NCBI GenBank assembly: GCA_964394855.1 | Contig: CAYMZD010000004.1 | Span: 8,316 to 72,315 of the forward strand | Source: an uncultured Gammaproteobacteria bacterium | GTDB lineage: Bacteria > Patescibacteriota > Microgenomatia > Daviesbacterales > UBA10151 | Direction of reading: 5' to 3' | DNA: 64,000 nucleotides | Part shown: one piece after another, positions 43,148-55,383 of the stretch | How positions within the stretch are numbered: position 1 is the first letter of the stretch | Layout: every line of letters begins with the position of its first letter | Notes under the pieces: model-generated | The model's input: only the letters and a program-made list of their open reading frames with translations | Databases searched by the model: none | Told to the model about the DNA's origin: nothing | Position numbers and translations under genes: made by a program

Positions 43148-43951
43148 TTACTGAATTTCTGACCACTTTTGCAATGCATCGGCAAAGACGTTCCTTAAAA
43201 TGACCAGATATTTGGGTTCGTAATGAATTTTTTCCGCCGGTTGGGTATTGTCTGTTAGCTGGCGGCGGAATTTAATTGGTTTGGTAGAATCAAGGCTAAT
43301 TAAACTGCCATTGATTAGAAGTTGAGGGGCATTAATATTAGCAGCCGGGCAGCCTCCGGCTTCATAGGCAGTGCAAATTGTACCCTGGGAAATCAAAACT
43401 GCATCAATTCGATCAGCATCCTTACTGATATTAATATCACCCCCAACCACGAAAACTACTCCCGAATTTGGACCACCATAGGTGATATTTTGGTTAATAG
43501 ACAAATTTTCTTTAACAAATACTACTCCGGATTCTCCAGTTCCACTCAAATTAGCGTCAATGTTGAGGTTATTTGGGATAAAATATAGACGGTTTAAGCC
43601 TCCGGTCATGGGAATATTCGACTGGGTACAGGGATTACAGGTTAAAGCGGTTTTATTAAGTGGGGGATCGGAGGGATTGGCCTGGTCATAATAAATGGAT
43701 TTTAAATCATCATAAGTGGGCAGTTTATAAGAAACAAAGGCGGCCTGATCTGTTTCTTTAATACACACAGCCTGGCCATTCACAGTATTGCCAAATTTGG
43801 TAATAGTATCCTTAGCACTAACCAGCCCGGTGGCTCTATCACCAATTTGACAACTACTAGGTTGGGCAAGTATTTGAGAAACGGTTAAAAGAATAAAGAC
43901 TAATCCCCCCATCACAAATAATACATAATGCTTAATGCTAGTTTTTTTCAT
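43148..43951 (-). CDS. Secreted hypothetical protein (N-rich, beta-helix-like)
   Basis: Signal peptide; overlaps the upstream giant protein gene. Confidence 0.4.
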   Translation of the reverse strand: MKKTSIKHYVLFVMGGLVFILLTVSQILAQPSSCQIGDRATGLVSAKDTITKFGNTVNGQAVCIKETDQAAFVSYKLPTYDDLKSIYYDQANPSDPPLNKTALTCNPCTQSNIPMTGGLNRLYFIPNNLNIDANLSGTGESGVVFVKENLSINQNITYGGPNSGVVFVVGGDINISKDADRIDAVLISQGTICTAYEAGGCPAANINAPQLLINGSLISLDSTKPIKFRRQLTDNTQPAEKIHYEPKYLVILRNVFADALQKWSEIQ

Positions 43952-46281
43952 GGTCCTCCCGGAGTATTTATTCTGGTATTAGAATGAACATCACCACCAA
44001 TAGTTTGAATCCATGATTGGACAGGTAGGGTATAACTCCAGCGCAAAGAGGCCCTGGCATCACCCCCGTTTTCATAATAATCAATCTCCACTAAATGGAC
44101 TCCTGCTGTGGCAAAGCTGCGACTGAAAGATCTCTCAAAATAGCCCGTGTCTCTCCAATCATCTAACACAGTTACTCCATCAATTCTCACTCTCACTCCA
44201 TCATCTGCCCCGGCATAAAAGGTATAAGTACCTGCTTTAAAGGTGAAGTTTCCTCTCCATCTGGCAGAAAAGGTATCAGCTCCCACAAAGGAATTAGGCT
44301 GACCTGTTCCCCAATCTTGATTTAAGGCATAAATTGTATCAGGAACAGGGGAGGGTAAAGATACACCATCAGGTGCATTGCCATCAGGGGTATTAAAGTT
44401 CACCCCGTCCCATAAACAGCCTGTCAGCTGATTGGTACCAGGACTGGTGTTGGTACAAGGGGGAGGAGGAATTAAACCAAACCAGCGGTGTTCAGAAACG
44501 CCCGCTGTTAAATTAACAGTGATAGCAGCAGGTTTTATCCAGCCAGCTGGGGCAATAGGATCAACAGTATAACTGCCGGGAGGAATAGCTCCAGTATCAT
44601 AGTAAGGGTCAGGATTACAAAGATTGGGTAGTTTAGTGCCTGACCAAGGCCCGGCAAAGTTAACCCAAGCATTGTCGCTGGTATATCCTCCGCAGGCAGC
44701 AGCTGAATTTCTGATTAATTGTTCTCCTCCATCCCATACTCCATTGCCGTTATCATCCTTCCACAACCTACCCAAAATGTTACCTGGACAAAAAGGCGCG
44801 ATAAAACTGGGACCTACTGTATGCACAGAACCATTCCACAGCCTCCATTGGTAGGTAGTATTGGGATTTAAAGTTAGGCCAGGGTTAAATCCCGCAGGTG
44901 CAGCAGTGGAGGTTTGATTACTAACATTTTTATTGGAGTAGCTGGCAAAACCATTAGTGGAGATGTCAGCCCACAAGGTGGAGTTGGTATTGGTCCAGCT
45001 CAAGGTCACATTAAACGGACCGCTGGCACAGGCGGGAACTCCTGATACCTGTAAGTTAGAAGGAGTGATGTTTTGGGTGGTAAAGTTTTGGGTGGGCGTA
45101 CAAGAGTATCTTGATCGGCCACTTGGTTGAACAGTAAAAGCTAGATTATGTGTACCACTGGTACCGCTTGGGACACAGTTATAGATAAAAGTGGGCCAGG
45201 GATTGGTAATACCTCCCCAGCAATAGTCTGCAGTTGCGCCATCACGATATAGCGCTACATTTGGCCAACCGTTGGGATCAGAGATACCTGTCACACGAGC
45301 TTGAATGGTGGAACTGGGTGGGGGATTGGAATTGGATAAGTTCCAGGAAACACTGCAAGAGCCTGGAGGAGGGGGAGGAGCACTACAGGCCCCGCCACAG
45401 CTGGGATCAGTGGTGGTACCGGCAGCATCATCTCTAATACAAGAACCACTGCTACATCTGTATCTGGCCAGAGGAGCACTACAGGCCCCGCCACAGCTGG
45501 GATCAGTGGTGGTACCGGCAGCATCATCATGAATACAAAGAGAAACGTCACATCGATACCTGTGGGTATGGGAGTAACAGCTAGAAGATGGATCTGAAAT
45601 GGTACTGCAGCTGGTGGAGCATTGAGGATACTGATTAACTGTTGACCAGCCACTCCAGCCGCTCCATCCACCACAATCCGCATTACAGGTTCTGGTTCTT
45701 TGCTGTTGGGTAACTGTTTCAGAACAATAATTTTCTATGCCGGGACAACTCCCACCATTGATAGAAGAATTACAAGAAGTTAAATATTGTGTTTCAGTTT
45801 GAGTTTCTCCACGGGTACAAATACCACAAGCCGGTACTGTTGTGCAGTCATGACTAACGGTATTGACCTCACTTCGTCTAACACACTCACAACTTGAATT
45901 CCAGTAATAGAAATATTGGAAATTACAAACATTATTACCTTTAGGGTTGGGTGTCCATTGCTGGTAAACATTGTTGCAACACCAGTTGCCGCTAAAATTT
46001 GATTCCCGGCATTCAGTAAATGGTGTACATGAAGGAGGTGGTGGAGGTGGATCACAGGCGCTGTCGCGGATGTTACATGAATCCTCCCAACAATAACCAC
46101 TACCATCATCCCATTCATAAACCATTTTACTGTAATAGTCAGCGCAACATTCGGTATAGCTGGGAACACATGATTGAGCATCAACTGACTTAACACTGAA
46201 AAAGAAAAAAACAGTTAACCCCAAAAAGATAAAAATAGCAATTAAAGCTTTAGAAAGGTAGGGCATATACTCATCGTACAA
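43948..46281 (-). CDS. Large secreted Cys-rich surface protein with C-terminal PA14 domain
   Basis: PA14 motif FSARWRGNFTF...GADDGVRVRIDG; many Cys; internal duplicated block ...DDAAGTTTDPSCGGACSAP. Confidence 0.6.
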   Translation of the reverse strand: MYDEYMPYLSKALIAIFIFLGLTVFFFFSVKSVDAQSCVPSYTECCADYYSKMVYEWDDGSGYCWEDSCNIRDSACDPPPPPPSCTPFTECRESNFSGNWCCNNVYQQWTPNPKGNNVCNFQYFYYWNSSCECVRRSEVNTVSHDCTTVPACGICTRGETQTETQYLTSCNSSINGGSCPGIENYCSETVTQQQRTRTCNADCGGWSGWSGWSTVNQYPQCSTSCSTISDPSSSCYSHTHRYRCDVSLCIHDDAAGTTTDPSCGGACSAPLARYRCSSGSCIRDDAAGTTTDPSCGGACSAPPPPPGSCSVSWNLSNSNPPPSSTIQARVTGISDPNGWPNVALYRDGATADYCWGGITNPWPTFIYNCVPSGTSGTHNLAFTVQPSGRSRYSCTPTQNFTTQNITPSNLQVSGVPACASGPFNVTLSWTNTNSTLWADISTNGFASYSNKNVSNQTSTAAPAGFNPGLTLNPNTTYQWRLWNGSVHTVGPSFIAPFCPGNILGRLWKDDNGNGVWDGGEQLIRNSAAACGGYTSDNAWVNFAGPWSGTKLPNLCNPDPYYDTGAIPPGSYTVDPIAPAGWIKPAAITVNLTAGVSEHRWFGLIPPPPCTNTSPGTNQLTGCLWDGVNFNTPDGNAPDGVSLPSPVPDTIYALNQDWGTGQPNSFVGADTFSARWRGNFTFKAGTYTFYAGADDGVRVRIDGVTVLDDWRDTGYFERSFSRSFATAGVHLVEIDYYENGGDARASLRWSYTLPVQSWIQTIGGDVHSNTRINTPGGP
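45378..45569. repeat. In-frame tandem duplication (2 x 96 bp) inside the PA14 surface protein gene
   Basis: gagcactacaggccccgccacagctgggatcagtggtggtaccggcagcatcatc occurs at ~45378 and again at ~45474. Confidence 0.8.
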
Positions 46282-47209: not shown

Positions 47210-47767
47210 TTACTCAACAATATTAAAAGAACTACCAACAAGCTCATTTTTTCTATGGGGAAACACAAAAAAGTCACCATGTAATTTAGTGCTTAAGGGG
47301 ATTTTATCAACAGTAACCTCTGTAAACCGTTTGCCATCTTTATCTGGTATGGCTTCTGGCTTATAAAATTTTGTGCCGTAAATTTCTTTCGAGCTGCCTT
47401 GTACGAAAATAACTATCTTATTTCCTTTATCATCCGAGATAGTGATAGACCCTTCATCCTTGGCCACTAGAGTTCCTACAACTGATCCTCTCCATTCATA
47501 AACCAGGGGGTTTTTAAGGATATCAAAAGCTATGGGGGACTCACTTTCATCAAGAGTTTTTCCTGATAGGCTGGCTGATGGGGTGGAGGTGGGAGTAGCT
47601 GGCTGGAAGGGGTTAGCCAATAAGTTTAGCTTAATACCAAAGTAGTTTAATAAAAAAAGTTCCACTAAAGTTAAAATTACCACCATTACTAAAAGATAAA
47701 ATATTTTTTTACTATAAAAAGGGGAAGGGGACATTAAAATTTGAGGCTTGGGGATATTACCATTCAT
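47210..47767 (-). CDS. Membrane-anchored hypothetical protein
   Basis: Its N-terminus and promoter lie inside direct repeat A; TTGACA-N17-TGATAAT box 6 nt before the ATG. Confidence 0.5.
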   Translation of the reverse strand: MNGNIPKPQILMSPSPFYSKKIFYLLVMVVILTLVELFLLNYFGIKLNLLANPFQPATPTSTPSASLSGKTLDESESPIAFDILKNPLVYEWRGSVVGTLVAKDEGSITISDDKGNKIVIFVQGSSKEIYGTKFYKPEAIPDKDGKRFTEVTVDKIPLSTKLHGDFFVFPHRKNELVGSSFNIVE

Positions 47768-47809
47768 AATTTAATTATCAAATTTTTACGGTTTATTTGT
47801 CAAGTCAAG
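47695..47809. repeat. Direct repeat A (115 bp) bounding the AsnB-like/PqqD-like cassette
   Basis: Near-identical to 49963-50084 (3 mismatches and one 9-bp indel). Confidence 0.85.
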
Positions 47810-47869
47810 TTTGACTATTAAAGGATAAAGTGCTATAAAATATTCTTATCATAAGAGGAGGTGAGGTAT

Positions 47870-48019
47870 TTTGAACACAGCAATTAAAGAAATTACTACT
47901 AATGAAGTAATACGAACTGAACCGGACCAGCTTCCTAAGGCAGAGATAATAAAAAGAAAAAGAGGAGCTAGCATGAGAAAGTATAGCTATTATCCAGATG
48001 GGGCAATAACACTTTACTA
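47870..48019 (+). CDS. Candidate 49-aa precursor-like peptide (MNTAIKEITTNEVIRTEPDQLPKAEIIKRKRGASMRKYSYYPDGAITLY)
   Basis: TTG start 6 nt after the strong SD AAGAGGAGGTGAGG. A nested ATG (MRKYSYYPDGAITLY) also has the SD AAGAGGAG. Located immediately upstream of the PqqD-like gene. Coordinates may be off by 1. Confidence 0.3.
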
Positions 48020-48058
48020 GGTTTAAAGTCTAAAACTCTGTGATTTTATCGAAAGTTT

Positions 48059-48346
48059 ATGAACCAAAAATATTGGCTTAATCAGTATTGTGTCTTTTTT
48101 CATCCCAAGTTAGATCAACAAAATAATTTTAATACTATTGTTAGAAATCCCGGTGGCGATTTTATTAAAGTAAATAAAAGCGGTTATTTTATCTTAAAAG
48201 CCATTAATGATAATCCTGGAATAAGTTTAGAAGGTGTCGCTAAGCAGATAAGAGCTACTTTAGATACTTCACAAATGTCCCTTAAAAATATTGAGCAGTT
48301 TGTAAGTTCAATGATGATTGGCGGTGTGATTGAAATCAATGAATAA
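48059..48346 (+). CDS. PqqD-like RiPP recognition element protein
   Basis: Size 95 aa; GDFIKVNKSGYFILKAINDNPGISLEGVAKQI is typical of PqqD/RRE; overlaps the next gene. Confidence 0.6.
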   Translation: MNQKYWLNQYCVFFHPKLDQQNNFNTIVRNPGGDFIKVNKSGYFILKAINDNPGISLEGVAKQIRATLDTSQMSLKNIEQFVSSMMIGGVIEINE

Positions 48347-49928
48347 ACATTTATTAATCCAAATAGACAAAAATAGCTGGAAATTAGATATAAATTTGCC
48401 CGATAGAAAGATACCGAGGAGTTTTAGGTTAGACCGAAATGGTTATATTTGTTTGGGATATTTTATTAGTTGGGAAGAGGATCTAACAGATCAGCAGATT
48501 TTTCAGTATTGTAAAGACAGAGACTTTGAAACGTTAGCCAATTTAACCGCCGATTTTTTAATAATATTTATCGATCAAAGTAATAAAAAAGTAACTGTAC
48601 TTAACAGCCAAACAGGAACCTTTCCATGTTATTTTGCTTTCATAGAGGACAATTTAATTATCTCAACCTCGTTTTACGAGATTAAAAAAAGGTTAAAATA
48701 TCTAACTTTAAATTTAAATCAAGCCTTTGATTATTTTATATTTGAATTTTTCAATTTTCCACAAGATGAAACGATATTAGAGGAGATAAACCAGGTTCCG
48801 CCAGCGGCGCTATTAGAAGTTAAACCGACTTTCGAATATAGAATTAGTTCTTTACTAAAGTACAGAGAATTTTATGGAGAAGGGGTTACACCTCTGGAAT
48901 CAACTGAAGATTTTACTAATCAAGTTGCTACTTTAATAGAAATAATCACTCGGGAACGCTTGACAAGACTTAAACAATTTTCTAAGGCTGGTGAATTAAG
49001 CTCTGGCTATGATAGTGGATTAGTAGCCTCCGCGATTGCTAATATAGATCCCCAAAGTGCTCAATTTTATACTTGGAATTCAGAGTTGGATCAACTTGAT
49101 AGCGATCCCGCTGTTGTAAAAAAGTTCGCTTTAAAACATGAATTAAAAGTTAATTTTTGGGAGAAAGATGCCTACTTTCCTTTTGCGGCAGAAGAAGACT
49201 TGAAGCTATCGGAAGATAATTTTTATCCAGCGACATTTGCTCAAAATTTAATTTTAGAATTCTACAAGTATCTTTCAGCGGAGGACAAAGAGGTTGTTTT
49301 TAACGGAACTGGAGGAGATGAAATTTATATGGTACATGAAATGGATGATTTATATCCATATTTTGTTCATCTTGATTATTTTGATACTGTTAGAGCTCTA
49401 GATTGGGATATAGATAGGATATTAACTTCAAAAGGTATAGATATTTTGATGGATAGAGATCGTTTTTCGAAAAGAAATCTCTATCCTGTGATTTTATCTA
49501 CGTCATCATTGGAAAAAAATTATTTCCCAATTTATTGGGAATATAATCTTTGGCCAGTATCTCCTTTAACAGATCCTAGATTAATTAAATTAGCTCGTAG
49601 AATGCCTAAAAAAGATCCAGAGCAATTGCGGAAAGAGCATATCTGGAAACACAGAACAGATATTTTCCTGCCCGAGCAACTAAAGCCCAAGCATAGATTT
49701 GGAACTTTAAATTTTGTTAAACAATATGTTAAAAAGAGAAAAGATTTTATTATTGAGGTACTTAGAAATTCAGTCTTGGCTAAAAAAGGTTTAATTAAGG
49801 CAGATGAAATTATAAAAAATCTACAAGAGGACAAATTTGATTTATATTCTGACAAAAATAATTTGTTTTTCCATAATGTAATTAGGCTTGAATATTTTAT
49901 CCAAAAAAATTTAGTTAAAGTTTTGTGA
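48330..49928 (+). CDS. Asparagine-synthetase-B-like amidotransferase without the N-terminal Cys nucleophile (lasso-cyclase-like)
   Basis: PP-loop SSGYDSGLVASAI (compare SGGLDSS); N-terminus MKSMNK lacks Cys2; TTG start; 532 aa. Confidence 0.7.
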   Translation: MKSMNKHLLIQIDKNSWKLDINLPDRKIPRSFRLDRNGYICLGYFISWEEDLTDQQIFQYCKDRDFETLANLTADFLIIFIDQSNKKVTVLNSQTGTFPCYFAFIEDNLIISTSFYEIKKRLKYLTLNLNQAFDYFIFEFFNFPQDETILEEINQVPPAALLEVKPTFEYRISSLLKYREFYGEGVTPLESTEDFTNQVATLIEIITRERLTRLKQFSKAGELSSGYDSGLVASAIANIDPQSAQFYTWNSELDQLDSDPAVVKKFALKHELKVNFWEKDAYFPFAAEEDLKLSEDNFYPATFAQNLILEFYKYLSAEDKEVVFNGTGGDEIYMVHEMDDLYPYFVHLDYFDTVRALDWDIDRILTSKGIDILMDRDRFSKRNLYPVILSTSSLEKNYFPIYWEYNLWPVSPLTDPRLIKLARRMPKKDPEQLRKEHIWKHRTDIFLPEQLKPKHRFGTLNFVKQYVKKRKDFIIEVLRNSVLAKKGLIKADEIIKNLQEDKFDLYSDKNNLFFHNVIRLEYFIQKNLVKVL

Positions 49929-49962
49929 TGTTGGTATGTGATTATTTTGCTAAAATAATCAG

Positions 49963-50084
49963 ATAAAATATTTTTTTACTATAAAAATATAAAAAGGGGA
50001 AGGGGACATTAAAATTTGAGGCTTGGGGATATTACCATCCATAATTTAATTATCAAATTTTTACGCTTTATTTGTCAAGTCAAG
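49963..50084. repeat. Direct repeat B, with a truncated 27-codon copy of the 47767 gene N-terminus on the minus strand
   Basis: Minus strand reads MDGNIPKPQILMSPSPFYIFIVKKYFI-stop. Confidence 0.85.
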
Positions 50085-50190
50085 GAAATTGACAAGCATG
50101 ATAGTTTTTGTTATATTCTTATTCATTCTGTCATTTTGTACAAATACAGTTTAGCCTTCTTTGTCTGGTCAATCAGACCATGGCGGAGGA

Positions 50191-50880
50191 TTAGCTCCGA
50201 TAACTAATATATTCACGAGCATTAATATCTAATCCTGAATCTAATATATATTTTTCTTGAGCGAAATCCTTAATTAAAACGGCTATTTTTTCAGGTAGAA
50301 TTCCTTGAAAATTTTTCATTTGGGTAGCAACTCCTCCAGATATGAAATTATATATTTTTAAAGTGGGAGTTTCCTTTGCCAAAGCTTGAGTAAAACCTCG
50401 CACACCCCATTTTGAAGCTCCATAAACTGATTGTTTTTCATATCCTCCTATACTGGCAGCACTTCCCATATTTATAATCATGTCTTGAATATATGGTAAG
50501 CAAGCAATAGTCATTTTAATCAATCCCTCCAAGTTAACTCTTAATTGATTTTCAACTTCATTATTAGTATGTTCTCTCGCCATTTTCCAAAAAATTACTC
50601 CGGAGTTATTAATTAAGATAGATATTTTTCCTAATTGTTTTATTATTTTAGCAACCGTCCTTTTTATAGAATCATTATTTGTGAGATCTAAATATAATAA
50701 CAAAACTTTAGGAGACCCCAATTCTAGGCACCTTCTTTTTACTAACTCTCCTTCTTTATATCCCTTATAATAAGTTAAAATCAGTATACTTTTTTGTTTG
50801 GCAAATTCATAAGCACATTCTTTCCCGATACCACGACTTGCTCCAGTTATAAACACAACTCTATTTTCTAAAGAATACAT
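50191..50880 (-). CDS. Short-chain dehydrogenase/reductase
   Basis: TGASRGIG cofactor site; YxxxK. Confidence 0.85.
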   Translation of the reverse strand: MYSLENRVVFITGASRGIGKECAYEFAKQKSILILTYYKGYKEGELVKRRCLELGSPKVLLLYLDLTNNDSIKRTVAKIIKQLGKISILINNSGVIFWKMAREHTNNEVENQLRVNLEGLIKMTIACLPYIQDMIINMGSAASIGGYEKQSVYGASKWGVRGFTQALAKETPTLKIYNFISGGVATQMKNFQGILPEKIAVLIKDFAQEKYILDSGLDINAREYISYRS

Positions 50881-50910
50881 ATCACTTCTTTCATATCAAC
50901 TTTATTAATA

Positions 50911-52155
50911 TTATCTTCTTGTTACAAAATCTAAAAATTGAGCATTAATTTTGGCTGGTGAAAATTTATCTAAGGTAATTGTTTGGGCTAATTCAGATAA
51001 GTACTGTCGGTATCGAGAAGGTGCAGAAATAAGATCTTTAATTTTTTGGGCTAACTGATAATAACCAATTTCATTTGGCTCTTGGGCTAGAAAACCAGCT
51101 TCACCAAATTGAGATATAGCCTCTCCTGATCCCCGTGAATTAAAGCCCATTAAAGGTAGCCCATGACTAGCAGCTTCGGTAAATACTAAACTTAGACCTT
51201 CTATGGTTGATGGCTGAAAGAAGAGATCAGCGTTTGTATATGCCTTACATAAAAAATCACCATCTGGAATACATCCTCTTAAATCAAACTGGCAATGAGA
51301 GAAACTTTTATTTAATTCTTCAGTTTGTTGAGAAAACCATTGACCATATGGATTATTAAGATCGCCCACAACAACGAACTTTGCTAGACTATCACTACCT
51401 TTCAATATACGGTCTAGCATAACCGCAAGTTCCAATAATCTACCAGTACCTTTTTTAGCAGTAATACGACCTACACTTAAAATTGTATATTCGTTAGTAT
51501 CAGTTTTTCTTTGCTGGGGACATTTATGGCAAAATTCTCCAACTGGTGGAATAACTATCCATTCAGCGGGAGTATCTTTAGGAAAAACATTATCGAATGA
51601 GGATTTGATCGAATATGAATTAAATATAGCTGATGTATTTGTTATTCCTCTTTGAGATAACATCATATTTCTAAGGTGATATAAGGGGTGCGAAAGTAGA
51701 TAGATATAATAGTCCACCAAAGATGCGGAATCGACATCAGAAAGTCCTATGTCTAATGGACAATTCCATACGACAGTAGTTTTTCGTTTTTGCTTAGGTA
51801 TTAATCGATCGTAGACACTCATACCTATCATATCAGGGCTATATATTACTATATTACCCATGCTTTGCTGAACTAAAGAAGATAACTTTCGTTTAGAAGC
51901 TGGGGTAGGCAGTTTTTCAAGAATTGGTATGCTCGCTATGGTATGGAGAGGCTCATAAGCTAAAGAAGGATAAGGTGATGGAGGGTGAACTAAAGATTTT
52001 CGTCTTTTGATTGGATAAGCCCATATTACTTCTTGATTGCCTTGACTTGCGGCAAATTCCGCGAATGAAGCAACTGTTCGTTGTATACCTCCTGTAGTAT
52101 TTGGGGCATATTCAGATGTAAGTAGCAGGCTATTTTTCGCTTCTTCCTTTAGCAT
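50911..52155 (-). CDS. GT4-like glycosyltransferase
   Basis: C-terminal GT-B region with FTEAASHGLPLMGF. Confidence 0.7.
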   Translation of the reverse strand: MLKEEAKNSLLLTSEYAPNTTGGIQRTVASFAEFAASQGNQEVIWAYPIKRRKSLVHPPSPYPSLAYEPLHTIASIPILEKLPTPASKRKLSSLVQQSMGNIVIYSPDMIGMSVYDRLIPKQKRKTTVVWNCPLDIGLSDVDSASLVDYYIYLLSHPLYHLRNMMLSQRGITNTSAIFNSYSIKSSFDNVFPKDTPAEWIVIPPVGEFCHKCPQQRKTDTNEYTILSVGRITAKKGTGRLLELAVMLDRILKGSDSLAKFVVVGDLNNPYGQWFSQQTEELNKSFSHCQFDLRGCIPDGDFLCKAYTNADLFFQPSTIEGLSLVFTEAASHGLPLMGFNSRGSGEAISQFGEAGFLAQEPNEIGYYQLAQKIKDLISAPSRYRQYLSELAQTITLDKFSPAKINAQFLDFVTRR

Positions 52156-52682
52156 TATATTTTAAATGTTTTTGTTGTTAATTGGTTTTTTATAAGAAAA
52201 AATAATAGCCACGCTAAAGTTAAAGGATTTTTTAGTTGATTAAGTAATTCAGACCATTTATTGATGAAGTCAAGTCGAATGATTATTTTATTATTAAATG
52301 CAAGAAAATCGTTTATTTTTTTTGTATCATATAATGAAATAGGAGTAGGTAAATTATAAAAATTAGCCCATTTAATATTCCTCACTTCTGAAGATTCCTT
52401 TAGTGTAGTGGGGTTAATTAGTTGCCCAGAGAATAAATATTTCTTTATATTACCATTTTTAGCATAATACTTGGCAATTAAATTAACTTTTTTTATCTTT
52501 ATTCCAGTTTCTTCATAAAGTTCTCTTAAAGCTGCAACTTTAGGAGATTCTTTTTTATTAATATGCCCTCCAGGGATAACCCAGAAAGGAACGTCTTGTC
52601 TCTGGGTTAAAAGAATTCTTCCTTCTCTATTGATAATAATTGTATGAACACTTTGATCCTTATAAGTATTTTGCTGTCTCAT
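52155..52682 (-). CDS. NUDIX hydrolase
   Basis: Nudix box GGHINKKESPKVAALRELYEETGI. Confidence 0.8.
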   Translation of the reverse strand: MRQQNTYKDQSVHTIIINREGRILLTQRQDVPFWVIPGGHINKKESPKVAALRELYEETGIKIKKVNLIAKYYAKNGNIKKYLFSGQLINPTTLKESSEVRNIKWANFYNLPTPISLYDTKKINDFLAFNNKIIIRLDFINKWSELLNQLKNPLTLAWLLFFLIKNQLTTKTFKI

Positions 52683-53841
52683 TTATTGTCTTGCTAAAAT
52701 AGTAAAAGTATTTTAACAGATCTTTGTTAGTTATTTCTAAAAAAAGGGTTTCATAATCAAGCTCTCTTTTTAATATTTTTAATTTAAAGTTGAACTCTTG
52801 GTTACGGCACAAGCGGTCTTTAGAAATAGTTATTTTTCTAGACTTATTTTTTGGATGAGTAAAAATCAGATCAGGTAATCTTGAGCAGTAGTAGTCTGAA
52901 CAATATAAGCTTAACAGGAGAGCCTTCAACTTTCTTTCCATCTTGGAAAAGTTGTACTTATTAATTGTACTCTGTAATGCACTATTGCTCCATTTATAAT
53001 CTTCTTCATGCCCCACATGGACTTTGGTTAAATTTAGTACAGGAATGTTTGATTCACCTTGAAAGTAATCGTCCAGAAAGCAATCATTTATTCCTTCTTT
53101 TATTAAGGAGTCTTGCAATAACTTCCACCTCGTGATTGATGAAACATCATTCTTGTTATTTTTTGTATAAGCATTTAAGACAAGTGCTTCTAAGTCAATT
53201 CGAGCTAATAAAGCTTTACCTTCTGCAAATTTTGAATAATTTTCTTTAATTGCAGAGATCACAGTGTCTATAGTGGTATCTTCCCTTAAATATTGATGGA
53301 AACAATCGCGGTATTCAAACTTACGTCGAGATAAATATGCTTTGATACTATGTTGCTGATTAGTAATATTAAAAATTGGTGGATACTTTTCCCATGATAA
53401 GTTATCAATCTTAATACGTGTTTCACCTAGTATAATTCCATCCCAGACTTTAGTTATTTCTGTGAGTATTTTTTTAGGAAACAGATCTGCTTCAGATGAA
53501 TAGCCGATATTGGTTAGCTTGTCTTTACTAATTAAATCATTAATAATCTGCTTACCTAGCTTTGCTTCAAGTAAGAACTTAGAGGGGAAACATTGAGGAA
53601 TAGTATGAGTATGAAATGGTAAAAGAAACTTTATTTTGGGATGATTAATTAGTTGGTAAAAACATTCAGGATTCCAAGCTTTCAAAAGTAATAAATCTTC
53701 AGTGCAAATTGAAACTGTTGAATTAATAACTAAGGAATTTAAAATTAATGGAAGATACTTTTCTATATAAAGAGTCCGCTGGGAAAATGATAATGAAAGA
53801 TGGTTAAAATTAATATGGTAAAGAACGGATAGATTAATCAT
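52660..53841 (-). CDS. Hypothetical protein (393 aa), possibly a carbohydrate-active fold
   Basis: Operon member with an overlapping start/stop; HTHTIP motif. Confidence 0.4.
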   Translation of the reverse strand: MINLSVLYHINFNHLSLSFSQRTLYIEKYLPLILNSLVINSTVSICTEDLLLLKAWNPECFYQLINHPKIKFLLPFHTHTIPQCFPSKFLLEAKLGKQIINDLISKDKLTNIGYSSEADLFPKKILTEITKVWDGIILGETRIKIDNLSWEKYPPIFNITNQQHSIKAYLSRRKFEYRDCFHQYLREDTTIDTVISAIKENYSKFAEGKALLARIDLEALVLNAYTKNNKNDVSSITRWKLLQDSLIKEGINDCFLDDYFQGESNIPVLNLTKVHVGHEEDYKWSNSALQSTINKYNFSKMERKLKALLLSLYCSDYYCSRLPDLIFTHPKNKSRKITISKDRLCRNQEFNFKLKILKRELDYETLFLEITNKDLLKYFYYFSKTINETAKYL

Positions 53842-54865
53842 GAGTTAATAATTGTTGCACTAAGTTTTTTTGTTTATATTCTGCCCATTTTTGAAACCAT
53901 GAAAGATCTTGTGGAGAAACTACTTCTGCTAGTTGAGCAATTGAGTCTCGGTAACAGTCAGCAATTCTTGCTAATGTGTTTCGTAGAACATTACTTTTTG
54001 TAACTAATTCATTAATTACCATTGAATCGGTCGGTGTAATTGTTCCTTTTCCAAAGAATGCTAATAGGGTACTTCTATCAGTAGGAGATAGCAAATTATA
54101 TAGATAGGATAAAGGTATGGTTGGTACACCTCGTCGAATGTCACTAAATGAACGACCATAAAGGTCCCCATCTGTAAAGTCTTTCAGGTCATTGATTAAT
54201 TGTCCTCCTTGATTAAATAATCTTAGACCAGAGATTGCTAATTTAAATTTTTGATCTTCTTGTGATTCTGTCCACATCGCACTTAGCTGAAATGTTCCGT
54301 GAAAATCACATCTATTTTCGTAGTTACGCGTAATTATTCCTACTGGTGTTTCTAAATCCATAAGTCGATGTTCCCTAAGTGATCTAAGTCCGATCTGAAT
54401 ATATCTTGTACATGAGCTTGCAACAGTAGAGTTACCAACTTTTTCTGTTAAGTATTCTAATAATTTTTTAGTTCCATTTAAGGCTGCTGCAAGGGTTTGC
54501 TGTTTACCAAATTTTACCCAGCAGGTTTGAAGGTTACCTCGCATTGTGTCCTCATCTTCAATATCATCAAACATTAAAGAAATTGCCCAAAGCATATCTG
54601 CGGAGACTGCTAATGGTTTTCGGATATCACTATTTATTCCTAAATTTTTGCCCAGTACTTCAACAAATAGTCCTTTTTCTTTATGTACATGGGTAACAAA
54701 ACTGTGGTGTATGGGAATTGCTGTTTCGGGTTCAAGTCGACCTAGAAACTCTTGAGTTAGGAATAAAAGTCCTCGGTTTTTCCATTCCTCAAAAACTGAT
54801 AAAACAGTTGGGGCATTAATTCTTGCGTAAATTGCAGTGTCTAATTCAGGGATCATAAAAGTCAT
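53834..54865 (-). CDS. Isoprenoid synthase-like protein (class I terpenoid synthase/prenyltransferase fold)
   Basis: First Asp-rich motif LMFDDIEDEDTMRGN; second acidic cluster NDLKDFTDGD. Confidence 0.45.
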   Translation of the reverse strand: MTFMIPELDTAIYARINAPTVLSVFEEWKNRGLLFLTQEFLGRLEPETAIPIHHSFVTHVHKEKGLFVEVLGKNLGINSDIRKPLAVSADMLWAISLMFDDIEDEDTMRGNLQTCWVKFGKQQTLAAALNGTKKLLEYLTEKVGNSTVASSCTRYIQIGLRSLREHRLMDLETPVGIITRNYENRCDFHGTFQLSAMWTESQEDQKFKLAISGLRLFNQGGQLINDLKDFTDGDLYGRSFSDIRRGVPTIPLSYLYNLLSPTDRSTLLAFFGKGTITPTDSMVINELVTKSNVLRNTLARIADCYRDSIAQLAEVVSPQDLSWFQKWAEYKQKNLVQQLLTHD

Positions 54866-54954
54866 TATATCAATCTATATCAGTACTTACCAACTTTATA
54901 AGAATTTTAACGAATATGAATAGGTAAATTACAAAGTTTTTTTAAGTAAATGAT

Positions 54955-55383
54955 TTATTCAAAAGCTTTATCTATGACTTCTTGTGATAAATACTTCCAA
55001 GATAATCTGGGATCAGTATAGTGTCTGGCTCTTTGAATTTTATCGTTCTTTATTTCAAATACTCCAACTATCGGAGTTCTAAATTTTTGGCCGGTTAATT
55101 CATCAATATAGCTTTCTACCCACTCAACTATTACTATACCTTTTTCCTCATCAGCTAAGATATTTTTAAACTGATACTCTCTGCCTTTAATTTGATAAAC
55201 TTTTTTGATGTTTTCTTCAACTGCCTTACCAGAAATAGTAGGAAAGGGCTGATCATTTTTATCTAAATACATTTCAATAACCTGATAGTTAGGGCTAATT
55301 AAGTTTAGCCCCTTTTTAGTATTACCCTCTTGTTCAGCTCTAAAAGAGTCCAGTACTAATTGAATCAATTGTTGTTTGTTCAT
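54955..55383 (-). CDS. SnoaL/NTF2-like protein
   Basis: Size 142 aa and a fold-typical pattern (limonene-epoxide-hydrolase/SnoaL-like). Confidence 0.5.
   Translation of the reverse strand: MNKQQLIQLVLDSFRAEQEGNTKKGLNLISPNYQVIEMYLDKNDQPFPTISGKAVEENIKKVYQIKGREYQFKNILADEEKGIVIVEWVESYIDELTGQKFRTPIVGVFEIKNDKIQRARHYTDPRLSWKYLSQEVIDKAFE

Follow-up and report, generated by a model that had tools for sequence, protein, structure and literature searches.

A three-gene cassette of Daviesbacteria pairs a small precursor-like peptide with a PqqD-like protein and an asparagine synthetase-like enzyme that may close a macrolactam

Within a 64,000-nucleotide stretch of contig CAYMZD010000004.1 (assembly GCA_964394855.1, positions 8,316 to 72,315; hereafter the window), assigned to the Daviesbacterales, we examined a compact cassette of three genes that lies between two direct repeats and encodes a 49-aa peptide, a 95-aa PqqD-like protein and an asparagine synthetase (AS)-like enzyme. 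Daviesbacteria belong to the Candidate Phyla Radiation (CPR; Patescibacteria). A preliminary description of this DNA had proposed that the PqqD-like protein is a recognition element (RRE) of the kind found in the pathways of RiPPs (peptides that are made on the ribosome and modified after translation), and that the cassette is either a lasso-type system that is unusual or lacks parts, or some other modification dependent on AsnB and an RRE. The features of the cassette are as follows (window coordinates).

47811–47839, plus strand: near-consensus cassette promoter-like site, TTGACT-17-TATAAA, two bases past the end of repeat A
47853–47866, plus strand: strong Shine-Dalgarno (SD) sequence, AAGAGGAGGTGAGG, with the final base four bases upstream of the start codon TTG
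47871–48020, plus strand: precursor peptide gene, 49 aa, with LPKAEIIK in its leader and core region RKYSYYPDGAITLY
47979–47999, plus strand: codons of K37-Y-S-Y-Y-P-D43, the proposed ring, which carries the family-wide K-x(4,5)-[DE] motif
48059–48346, plus strand: gene for the PqqD-like putative RRE, 95 aa, its 3' end overlapping the start of the enzyme gene
48339–49928, plus strand: AS-like enzyme, 529 aa from the ATG at 48339 (NCBI annotation) or 532 aa from a TTG at 48330
48999–49016, plus strand: PP-loop variant SSGYDS, with G223 and D225 conserved family-wide
49305–49328, plus strand: GTGGDEIY motif, the counterpart of the AsnB GEGSDE Mg/ATP site

The promoter-like site was read directly from the sequence, being missed in the promoter-scan output because the last base of its -10 hexamer is A. 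The SD at 47853–47866 bears out the unusually strong ribosome-binding site that had been noted before the 49-aa open reading frame (ORF), and the overlap of the RRE and enzyme genes suggests translational coupling. A nested SD-ATG had also been reported inside the peptide gene. This element (GAGGAG-N5-ATG, window 47956–47975, starting at Met35) does exist, and a product started there would be MRKYSYYPDGAITLY, which coincides with the core region. No relative has this Met, however; an alternative leaderless precursor start was rejected on that ground, and the element is probably a coincidental by-product of Lys, Arg and Gly codons. In Candidatus Daviesbacteria bacterium (GCA_016198205.1, 283-kb contig JACQIZ010000003.1), the hypothetical protein HY386_02035 has the same sequence as the 529-aa product, and both the enzyme and the RRE of the cassette are annotated as hypothetical in NCBI.

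Scored against curated models, the window enzyme reaches 17.3 bits on PF00733 (cut-off 21) and 35 bits on TIGR01536 (cut-off 267), positions 111–368 of the latter matching enzyme residues 59–330. Positions 1–110 of the AsnB model correspond to only 58 residues, about the first 50 positions of the glutaminase domain being gone, and the Cys at position 2, after the initiator Met, is absent from 55 of 56 family members. Together, the lost Cys and the shortened N-terminal region indicate that the glutaminase half is truncated and inactive. The protein is thus, as described earlier, an AS-like protein with a PP-loop (SSGYDS) and without the N-terminal Cys. On lasso-cyclase models, for which the curated cut-offs are 525 bits (NF033535) and 300 bits (NF033561), the window enzyme gives no NF033535 match at E ≤ 0.1 and 12.8 bits on NF033561. 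The best scores in the family are E = 8e-18 on the AsnB model and E = 3.5e-15 on NF033535, about equal and both far under the cut-off. Since a genuine AsnB scores 216 bits on NF033535, above every family member, the family's match to that model indicates membership of the AsnB superfamily and nothing narrower.

A word-indexed search with the window enzyme returned five relatives, and a profile search of 1.84 billion representatives returned about 76 clusters (50% identity) at E ≤ 1e-30, nearly all of 525–550 aa and matching end to end. Beyond these clusters, which form a family of their own, scores fall to ordinary AsnB proteins of 600–650 aa that match only profile positions ~50–340; the enzyme does not, as the preliminary description had allowed it might, cluster with housekeeping AsnB. 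That identity is ruled out by the curated scores, by the missing Cys and by linkage to the peptide gene and (with one exception) to the RRE gene. Relatives down to ~20% identity retain full length and the catalytic motifs. The relatives recovered from Streptomyces, Actinomadura and others are unclassified AS-like proteins, not lasso cyclases.

The AlphaFold2 model of the enzyme (pLDDT 93.6, from a 56-sequence alignment) has the two-domain fold of the AsnB superfamily, an Ntn-type domain joined to a PP-loop ATP pyrophosphatase domain, with the N-terminal Ntn domain degenerate. Its top structural matches in the PDB, identified with Foldseek, are TsnB9 (a hydroxyamidotransferase, the best match), beta-lactam synthetase (beta-LS), carbapenam synthetase (CarA) and AsnB, with E values of 7e-16 to 2.6e-11 and query-normalized TM-scores of 0.51–0.66. 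Within the family, little or no variation is seen at the PP-loop residues G223 and D225 or at G323, G325, G326 and E328, and GxGGDE is conserved; the position that we take to be equivalent to AsnB Glu348 is variable. Searching PDB sequences with the enzyme and RRE profiles gave weak AsnB matches only, and none for the RRE.

Two more distant relatives of the enzyme lie in other settings. Twenty Rhizobium plasmids (17 typed as conjugative) match the enzyme, the best two at 91% coverage, ~22% identity and E = 7e-22 with the family profile. The relative on Rhizobium ruizarguesonis plasmid NZ_CP084700.1 (198451–200281; our locus L122, 4655–6485) carries the annotation 'asparagine synthase-related protein', lies behind a 52-aa ORF that ends in MIKGGKPGDMDKLDV, and adjoins an acyl-homoserine lactone (AHL) synthase and a LuxR regulator; no RRE gene was found in the 11.5-kb locus. 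It is a distant cousin of the cassette in a cultured, tractable organism. On a Patescibacteria metagenome-assembled genome (MAG) contig, JAMCRD010000003.1 (L011, 7776–9392), the genes fusA (EF-G) and tuf (EF-Tu) flank a 538-aa relative (E = 8e-53 with the family profile) whose PP-loop has the canonical form SGGVDS; it has no RRE gene and no obvious precursor beside it.

The 95-aa protein of the window matches Pfam PqqD at E = 7e-4, under the gathering score. Among its relatives, 16 of 23 likewise match PqqD at E ≤ 0.1 (all below the gathering score), making this the commonest family, with winged-helix next, and the ~95-aa proteins from different loci match each other at E values of 1e-12 to 1e-45. 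These results agree with the earlier reading of a PqqD-like RRE.

The three-gene unit of peptide, RRE and enzyme recurs at more than 20 metagenomic loci in unrelated gene contexts (surroundings were read in at least 30 contigs), and apparently moves between genomes. Wherever upstream sequence suffices, the RRE gene adjoins and usually overlaps the enzyme gene, except in three loci (L093–L095), and every family enzyme gene with enough flank has a small ORF beside it; where this lies upstream of the RRE gene, it measures 34–67 aa and has an SD. Three loci carry tandem cassettes with different peptides (L006, L096 and L109), and in L121 the order is enzyme, RRE, peptide. One 90%-identity cluster of the enzyme family, that of protein P0021 (locus L120, 6526–8608), includes a fragment of 194 aa placed by NCBI in a MAG of Candidatus Aenigmatarchaeota (DPANN), which is either a cross-domain transfer or a binning error; the 108-kb contig with the full L120 cassette encodes PilM/PilN-like proteins.

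No further gene is a conserved partner of the unit. In the 65 ORFs that neighbour the unit at eight loci, each Pfam family is represented four times at most, and the 20 immediate neighbours include the toxins AbiEii and HicA (toxin-antitoxin), CysRS, a nuclease and GNAT. We found no transglutaminase-like protease among these 20 immediate neighbours or among the 25 commonest families of the 65. As described earlier for this locus, the ~10 kb to each side of the cassette in the window contain no recorded B2 (PF13471), the lasso protease of that type, and no recorded ABC exporter; PF13471 is likewise not on record in L001, L091, L120 and L121. ATP-grasp genes account for only three of the 65 neighbours (for example L106, 4921–6249) and none belongs to the conserved unit. 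The contexts are variable and non-housekeeping, so that the conserved housekeeping setting once considered as a counter-indication was not seen. An ABC exporter lies 3' of the cassette in L091, and GNAT acetyltransferases flank it in L001 and L101; these neighbours would fit a secreted or toxic product. In triculamin-type lasso systems, a GNAT acetylates a Lys and thereby inactivates the antimicrobial activity of the lasso peptide (PMC13178200), a parallel that may serve as a lead.

The small ORF, whose conservation had been in doubt, proved to be conserved as a leader and a core. A motif close to EP[TSK][AV]Ex[LI]G (EPxxExLG), which in the window takes the form LPKAEIIK, occurs in 18 of 21 precursors. 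About nine residues past it, all 23 precursors have a Lys, never Arg, although Arg is common nearby, and an acid follows 5 or 6 residues later (Asp in 15 cases, Glu in 8); in the window this is K37-YSYYP-D43. The pattern K-x(4,5)-[DE] falls within the last 20 residues of 21 of 21 peptides, against a mean of 4.2 and a maximum of 11 in 2000 shuffles, and it is also found in the precursors of L120 and of the order-reversed L121. The tail past the acid has 5–11 residues of variable sequence, nearly always with a bulky Arg, Tyr, Trp or Phe, and the core measures 12–19 residues from the Lys. The last residue of the 23 precursors may be Y, G, I, F, Q, S, V, K, R, A or D, a variability that argues against C-terminal chemistry, just as a Lys that is never Arg argues against a generic trypsin-type cleavage site.

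We judge the chances to be about even that the cassette is a complete, self-contained RiPP-type unit that forms a macrolactam on the Asp/Glu side chain, with the Lys epsilon-amine as the favoured nucleophile. In this scheme, built from gene content and motif conservation, the 49-aa peptide would be the substrate; the PqqD-like protein would bind its leader through the EPxxExLG-type motif (LPKAEIIK) and present the C-terminal region to the enzyme, which would adenylate the side-chain carboxylate of the invariant acid (Asp43); and an amine within the same peptide would attack, closing a small macrolactam. Without a glutaminase nucleophile, the enzyme has no means of supplying ammonia from glutamine, while its PP-loop and Mg/ATP motifs are retained. 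With the adenylation machinery kept, the ammonia source lost and the sole conserved carboxylate being the internal Asp/Glu, an intramolecular amine is the likeliest acceptor, in parallel with lasso cyclases and beta-lactam synthetase. The epsilon-amine of the invariant Lys37 is favoured because the residue is Lys and never Arg, because only a short distance of almost constant length parts it from the acid, and because no protease travels with the unit at the scanned loci; the product would be a side-chain-to-side-chain isopeptide ring that needs no leader protease. The three-gene unit, the fold, the lost Cys, the precursor motif and the lack of a conserved partner are observations, whereas the carboxylate that would be activated, the amine that would attack and the formation of any product are inferred.

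Several points weigh against this proposal. The Lys could instead mark the leader/core junction, as its distance from the leader motif (~9 residues) is also conserved, and its spacing to the acid is not fixed, being 5 or 6 residues. The 23 precursors are partly related and represent perhaps ~15 independent cases. The assignment of the 95-aa protein as an RRE draws on sub-threshold PqqD matches, and L093–L095 (for example L094, 5700–7536), where the enzyme comes straight after the precursor (…EPTIELLGGISERFDKYGPLGEPSFRRPA) and an RRE gene is missing, show that dependence on the RRE is not universal. In this lineage, whose close relative L096 does carry such a gene, the RRE may be supplied in trans or be dispensable. 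The protease check covered immediate neighbours and the top-25 family census, not whole genomes. Finally, we know of no AS-like enzyme that uses a Lys side chain as a nucleophile. In the literature consulted, the reactions described for AS-like enzymes in RiPP pathways are lasso closure on an alpha-amine, C-terminal amidation, and nitrile and hydrazide formation (PMC13060819, PMC13622209).

The main rival reading is a minimal lasso or lariat pathway, in which an unlinked or housekeeping protease would cut at or near the Lys and the newly exposed alpha-amine would be joined to the Asp/Glu side chain, giving a ring of 7 or 8 residues if the core began one residue before the Lys, 6 or 7 if it began at the Lys and 5 or 6 if it began after it. 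Like lasso systems, which comprise a precursor (A), an RRE (B1), a transglutaminase-like protease (B2) and a cyclase (C), the cassette has a leader-bearing small precursor, a discrete PqqD-like RRE beside the enzyme, an occasional ABC exporter or GNAT nearby, and an acid that precedes the C-terminus by about 6 to 16 residues, with a tail after it whose many bulky residues resemble a lasso plug. Lasso cyclases, too, are AS-like, lack the glutaminase Cys and operate with a PqqD-like RRE (PMC13060819; PMC9266682), and the fosfazinomycin pathway illustrates that an AS-like RiPP system can rely on housekeeping peptidases (PMC13622209). The family does reach the E value of 3.5e-15 on NF033535 given above, but it misses the 525-bit cut-off widely, and a genuine AsnB outscores it. 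Lasso precursors are further marked by a Thr at -2, by a small residue (G/A/S/C) in position 1 and by an Asp or Glu in positions 7–9. Of these, the acid is present here, but neither Thr nor a small residue is conserved at any position that would fit a ring of 7–9 residues: Thr is lacking at -2, and small residues are lacking from every candidate position 1. The cassette also differs in its leader (EPxxExLG rather than YxxP), in its very short core and in its invariant Lys, which precedes the acid by 5 or 6 residues; a position-1 or P1 residue would not need to be strictly Lys. B2 is absent from the neighbours scanned at about a dozen loci, eight of them with several-kb flanks. The lack of B2 among the neighbours scanned, the missing Thr at -2 and the cyclase model scores rule out a canonical lasso cluster, and conservation across more than 20 loci rules out an incomplete one; of the two options in the preliminary description, the different AsnB/RRE-dependent modification is the one we favour, and an unlinked-protease lariat we consider unlikely, if still a contender to be taken seriously.

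Alternatively, the Asp/Glu or the C-terminus might be activated and an external ammonia, polyamine or amino acid transferred to it, leaving a linear product. In AsnB-type enzymes, glutamine-type nitrogen donation requires the N-terminal Cys. AS-like enzymes are known to act on ribosomal peptides in this manner, TsrC and ScdTA amidating C-termini, PesC forming nitriles and FzmA forming hydrazides, the last of these using an RRE and no dedicated peptidase (PMC13060819, PMC13622209); in addition, the best structural match is the hydroxyamidotransferase TsnB9, and a spermidine-synthase-like methyltransferase lies between the two L096 cassettes. FzmA and PesC, however, draw nitrogen from a glutamine-type donor (PMC13622209, PMC13060819), and their substrates end in conserved motifs (VR in FzmZ, R(V/T)DN in PesA), whereas the Cys and the first part of the domain are missing in 55 of 56 members of the present family and the C-termini vary. 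The conserved substrate residues here are instead an internal Lys/acid pair, and the RRE is discrete, not fused to the enzyme. Converting Asp to Asn with ammonia would be pointless in a genetically encoded peptide, and the invariant Lys would be left unexplained. We therefore hold amidation or conjugation to be distinctly improbable. It is very unlikely that the cassette is non-functional, that is, a decaying asparagine synthetase paralogue with incidental small ORFs and repeats. The window's Pfam and NCBIfam matches do all fall under curated cut-offs, the NCBI annotation is hypothetical and a pseudogene-like stub adjoins the cassette; against this, full length, catalytic motifs and a confident fold persist down to ~20% identity, the leader and K...D/E motifs are kept across 23 loci and through a rearrangement of gene order, and the overlap of the RRE and enzyme genes suggests coupled translation.

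If the favoured Lys-to-acid ring is right, the closest chemical parallel would be offered by graspetides (microviridin-type), in which a Lys–Asp/Glu isopeptide is likewise made in an ATP-dependent manner on a leader-bearing precursor without prior proteolysis, and Lys and acidic residues are strictly conserved at short spacing. Graspetides rely on an ATP-grasp ligase that forms an acyl phosphate, in contrast to the adenylating PP-loop AS-like enzyme here; the cassette unit has no ATP-grasp gene, and recognition would pass through a discrete RRE. Beta-lactam and carbapenam synthetases, both without the glutaminase Cys, convert an adenylated carboxylate into an intramolecular amide and are among the top structural matches. 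They differ in having small-molecule substrates, four-membered lactam products, no precursor and no RRE, and their identity to the enzyme is 10–12%.

The cassette is bracketed by two direct repeats, whose surroundings contain the following features.

47694–47809, no strand assigned: repeat copy A (116 nt), which on the minus strand holds a promoter-like site and the first 24 codons of the gene at 47210–47767
49961–50084, no strand assigned: repeat copy B (124 nt)
47803–47774, minus strand: promoter-like site of copy A, TTGACA-18-GATAAT, present in copy B too
49959–50042, minus strand: frameshifted 27-codon stub of the neighbour gene's N-terminus, MDGNIPKPQILMSPSPFYIFIVKKYFI followed by a stop, within copy B
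47210–47767, minus strand: neighbour gene for a membrane-anchored protein of 185 aa without a Pfam family; the duplicated sequence is the promoter and 5' end of this gene
50089–50117, plus strand: second promoter-like site, near-consensus, TTGACA-17-TATATT with TG, starting 5 bases past the end of repeat B

Repeat search and global alignment showed that the copies share 114 of 116 bases, copy B being longer by a single 8-bp tandem duplication, TATAAAAA. The 43-nt repeat core occurs exactly twice in the window and in none of 100 shuffles. These data bear out the earlier account of two near-identical direct repeats, the first with the promoter and first codons of the minus-strand gene and the second with a truncated 27-codon copy of the same N-terminus, which we found to be a frameshifted stub. 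An independently assembled Logan unitig (L010, from SRR12113430; 2,284 bp) ends on the 31-mers that distinguish copies A and B, so both copies exist in raw reads; ending on distinguishing 31-mers is de Bruijn graph behaviour, and the unitig is an assembly-graph fragment, not a circular excision product. A structured RNA was likewise rejected for the repeat, as there is no Rfam match and folding z-scores are about -0.2 on both strands. The second promoter-like site is oriented antisense into the 3' end of a convergent short-chain dehydrogenase/reductase (SDR) gene, and the sequence just past its -10 box (ATATTCTTAT; window 50089–50190) matches that past the cassette's own promoter; the site may be the remnant of a second cassette promoter.

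Homologues of the neighbour gene in two other Daviesbacteria lineages share 59% and 46% identity. These homologues (L116–L118) keep the downstream neighbours, a ~266-aa protein and then a PA14 protein, but upstream they have a pseudouridine synthase in place of the SDR block; the conserved gene order therefore ends exactly at repeat A, and the insertion site is not comparable base by base. The PA14-domain protein of the window (777 aa, 43948–46281, minus strand) has Cys-rich and poly-Pro segments and an internal near-repeat, DDAAGTTTDPSCGGACSAP, that occurs twice; it adjoins the 185-aa gene and a 283-aa gene in an arrangement conserved in related Daviesbacteria. On its other side, the cassette (31.3% GC) is continuous with an adjoining block of 32.5% GC in a window of 39.6%. 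This low-GC island (47810–55383, 31–33%) comprises the cassette, at its edge, and a minus-strand SDR, a GT4 glycosyltransferase, a NUDIX hydrolase, a 393-aa protein of no Pfam family, a polyprenyl synthetase and a 142-aa protein, and its gene order differs from that of related Daviesbacteria.

The repeats fit a fairly recent duplication of the neighbour's promoter and 5' end, and with it acquisition of the cassette by insertion or recombination. Insertion with duplication of the target, as first proposed, is plausible and stops short of demonstration: an empty-site allele was not found, since next to the neighbour gene's nearest relatives lies a different gene, and 116 bp is far longer than a transposase-type target duplication. 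The 2.15 kb between the repeats hold the three cassette genes only, with no transposase or integrase, and the repeat search found no inverted repeats at the cassette ends. A transposon or integrative element was rejected as the source on these grounds and on the locus-specific nature of the repeats elsewhere. Recombination between promoter-containing repeats, template switching and loss of a second tandem cassette are candidate origins. No relatives were found on viral contigs, and phage carriage is thus not supported.

Flanking repeats are not a hallmark of the cassette, being absent in 6 of 10 loci scanned (L001, L101, L105, L109, L098 and L091). Repeats do flank the cassettes of L103 (39 nt), L096 (84 nt) and L094 (~120 nt), but they differ from locus to locus and resemble promoter, leader or hairpin elements present in several copies in the respective genomes. 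In L094 (3678–9286), a promoter, a G+C-rich leader of ~120 nt and a small ORF (MAKAEI…) occur in up to six copies in 6 kb, two of them 90–96% identical; this is perhaps a structured 5' leader that precedes members of a family of small-protein genes. In L096 (1586–8230), an intergenic element of 82–84 nt, present in three to four copies, consists of a GGCAA…TTGCC hairpin, a TGnTATAAT -10 box, a conserved leader and a CCCC…GGGG hairpin. Its copies separate cassette 1, the spermidine-synthase-like methyltransferase, cassette 2, hicA and a LysM protein, with AbiEii/HicA toxin genes near.

AS-like enzymes are a current frontier of RiPP enzymology. A survey that started from PF00733 counted ~3,800 RiPP-associated members and ~300 uncharacterized non-lasso candidates (PMC13060819). 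In the open-access literature we found no description of the present enzyme family, of a B2-less RRE/AS-like unit or of AS-like RiPP clusters in CPR bacteria. With its sub-threshold PF00733 score, hypothetical annotations and lack of B2, the cassette would be expected to escape both PF00733 surveys and mining by lasso rules. We read it as a novel form of RiPP chemistry, which would be a new class should the Lys–Asp/Glu ring be confirmed. The full proposal, a new RiPP class of ultra-small groundwater Patescibacteria/CPR in which an RRE-guided AS-like enzyme makes a Lys–Asp/Glu isopeptide on a leader-bearing precursor with no dedicated protease, thus performing graspetide chemistry with a lasso-cyclase fold, encoded in a mobile, tandem-duplicating 2.2-kb cassette, is one we put forward tentatively, as a possibility somewhat short of probable. 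If true, the ring would add a new reaction to the AS-like repertoire, and peptide cyclization by two proteins totalling ~620 residues without a protease would be attractive for engineering. It would also suggest that reduced-genome CPR bacteria maintain and exchange compact cassettes for peptide natural products, an exchange that would bear on the interactions of these episymbionts with their hosts and competitors.

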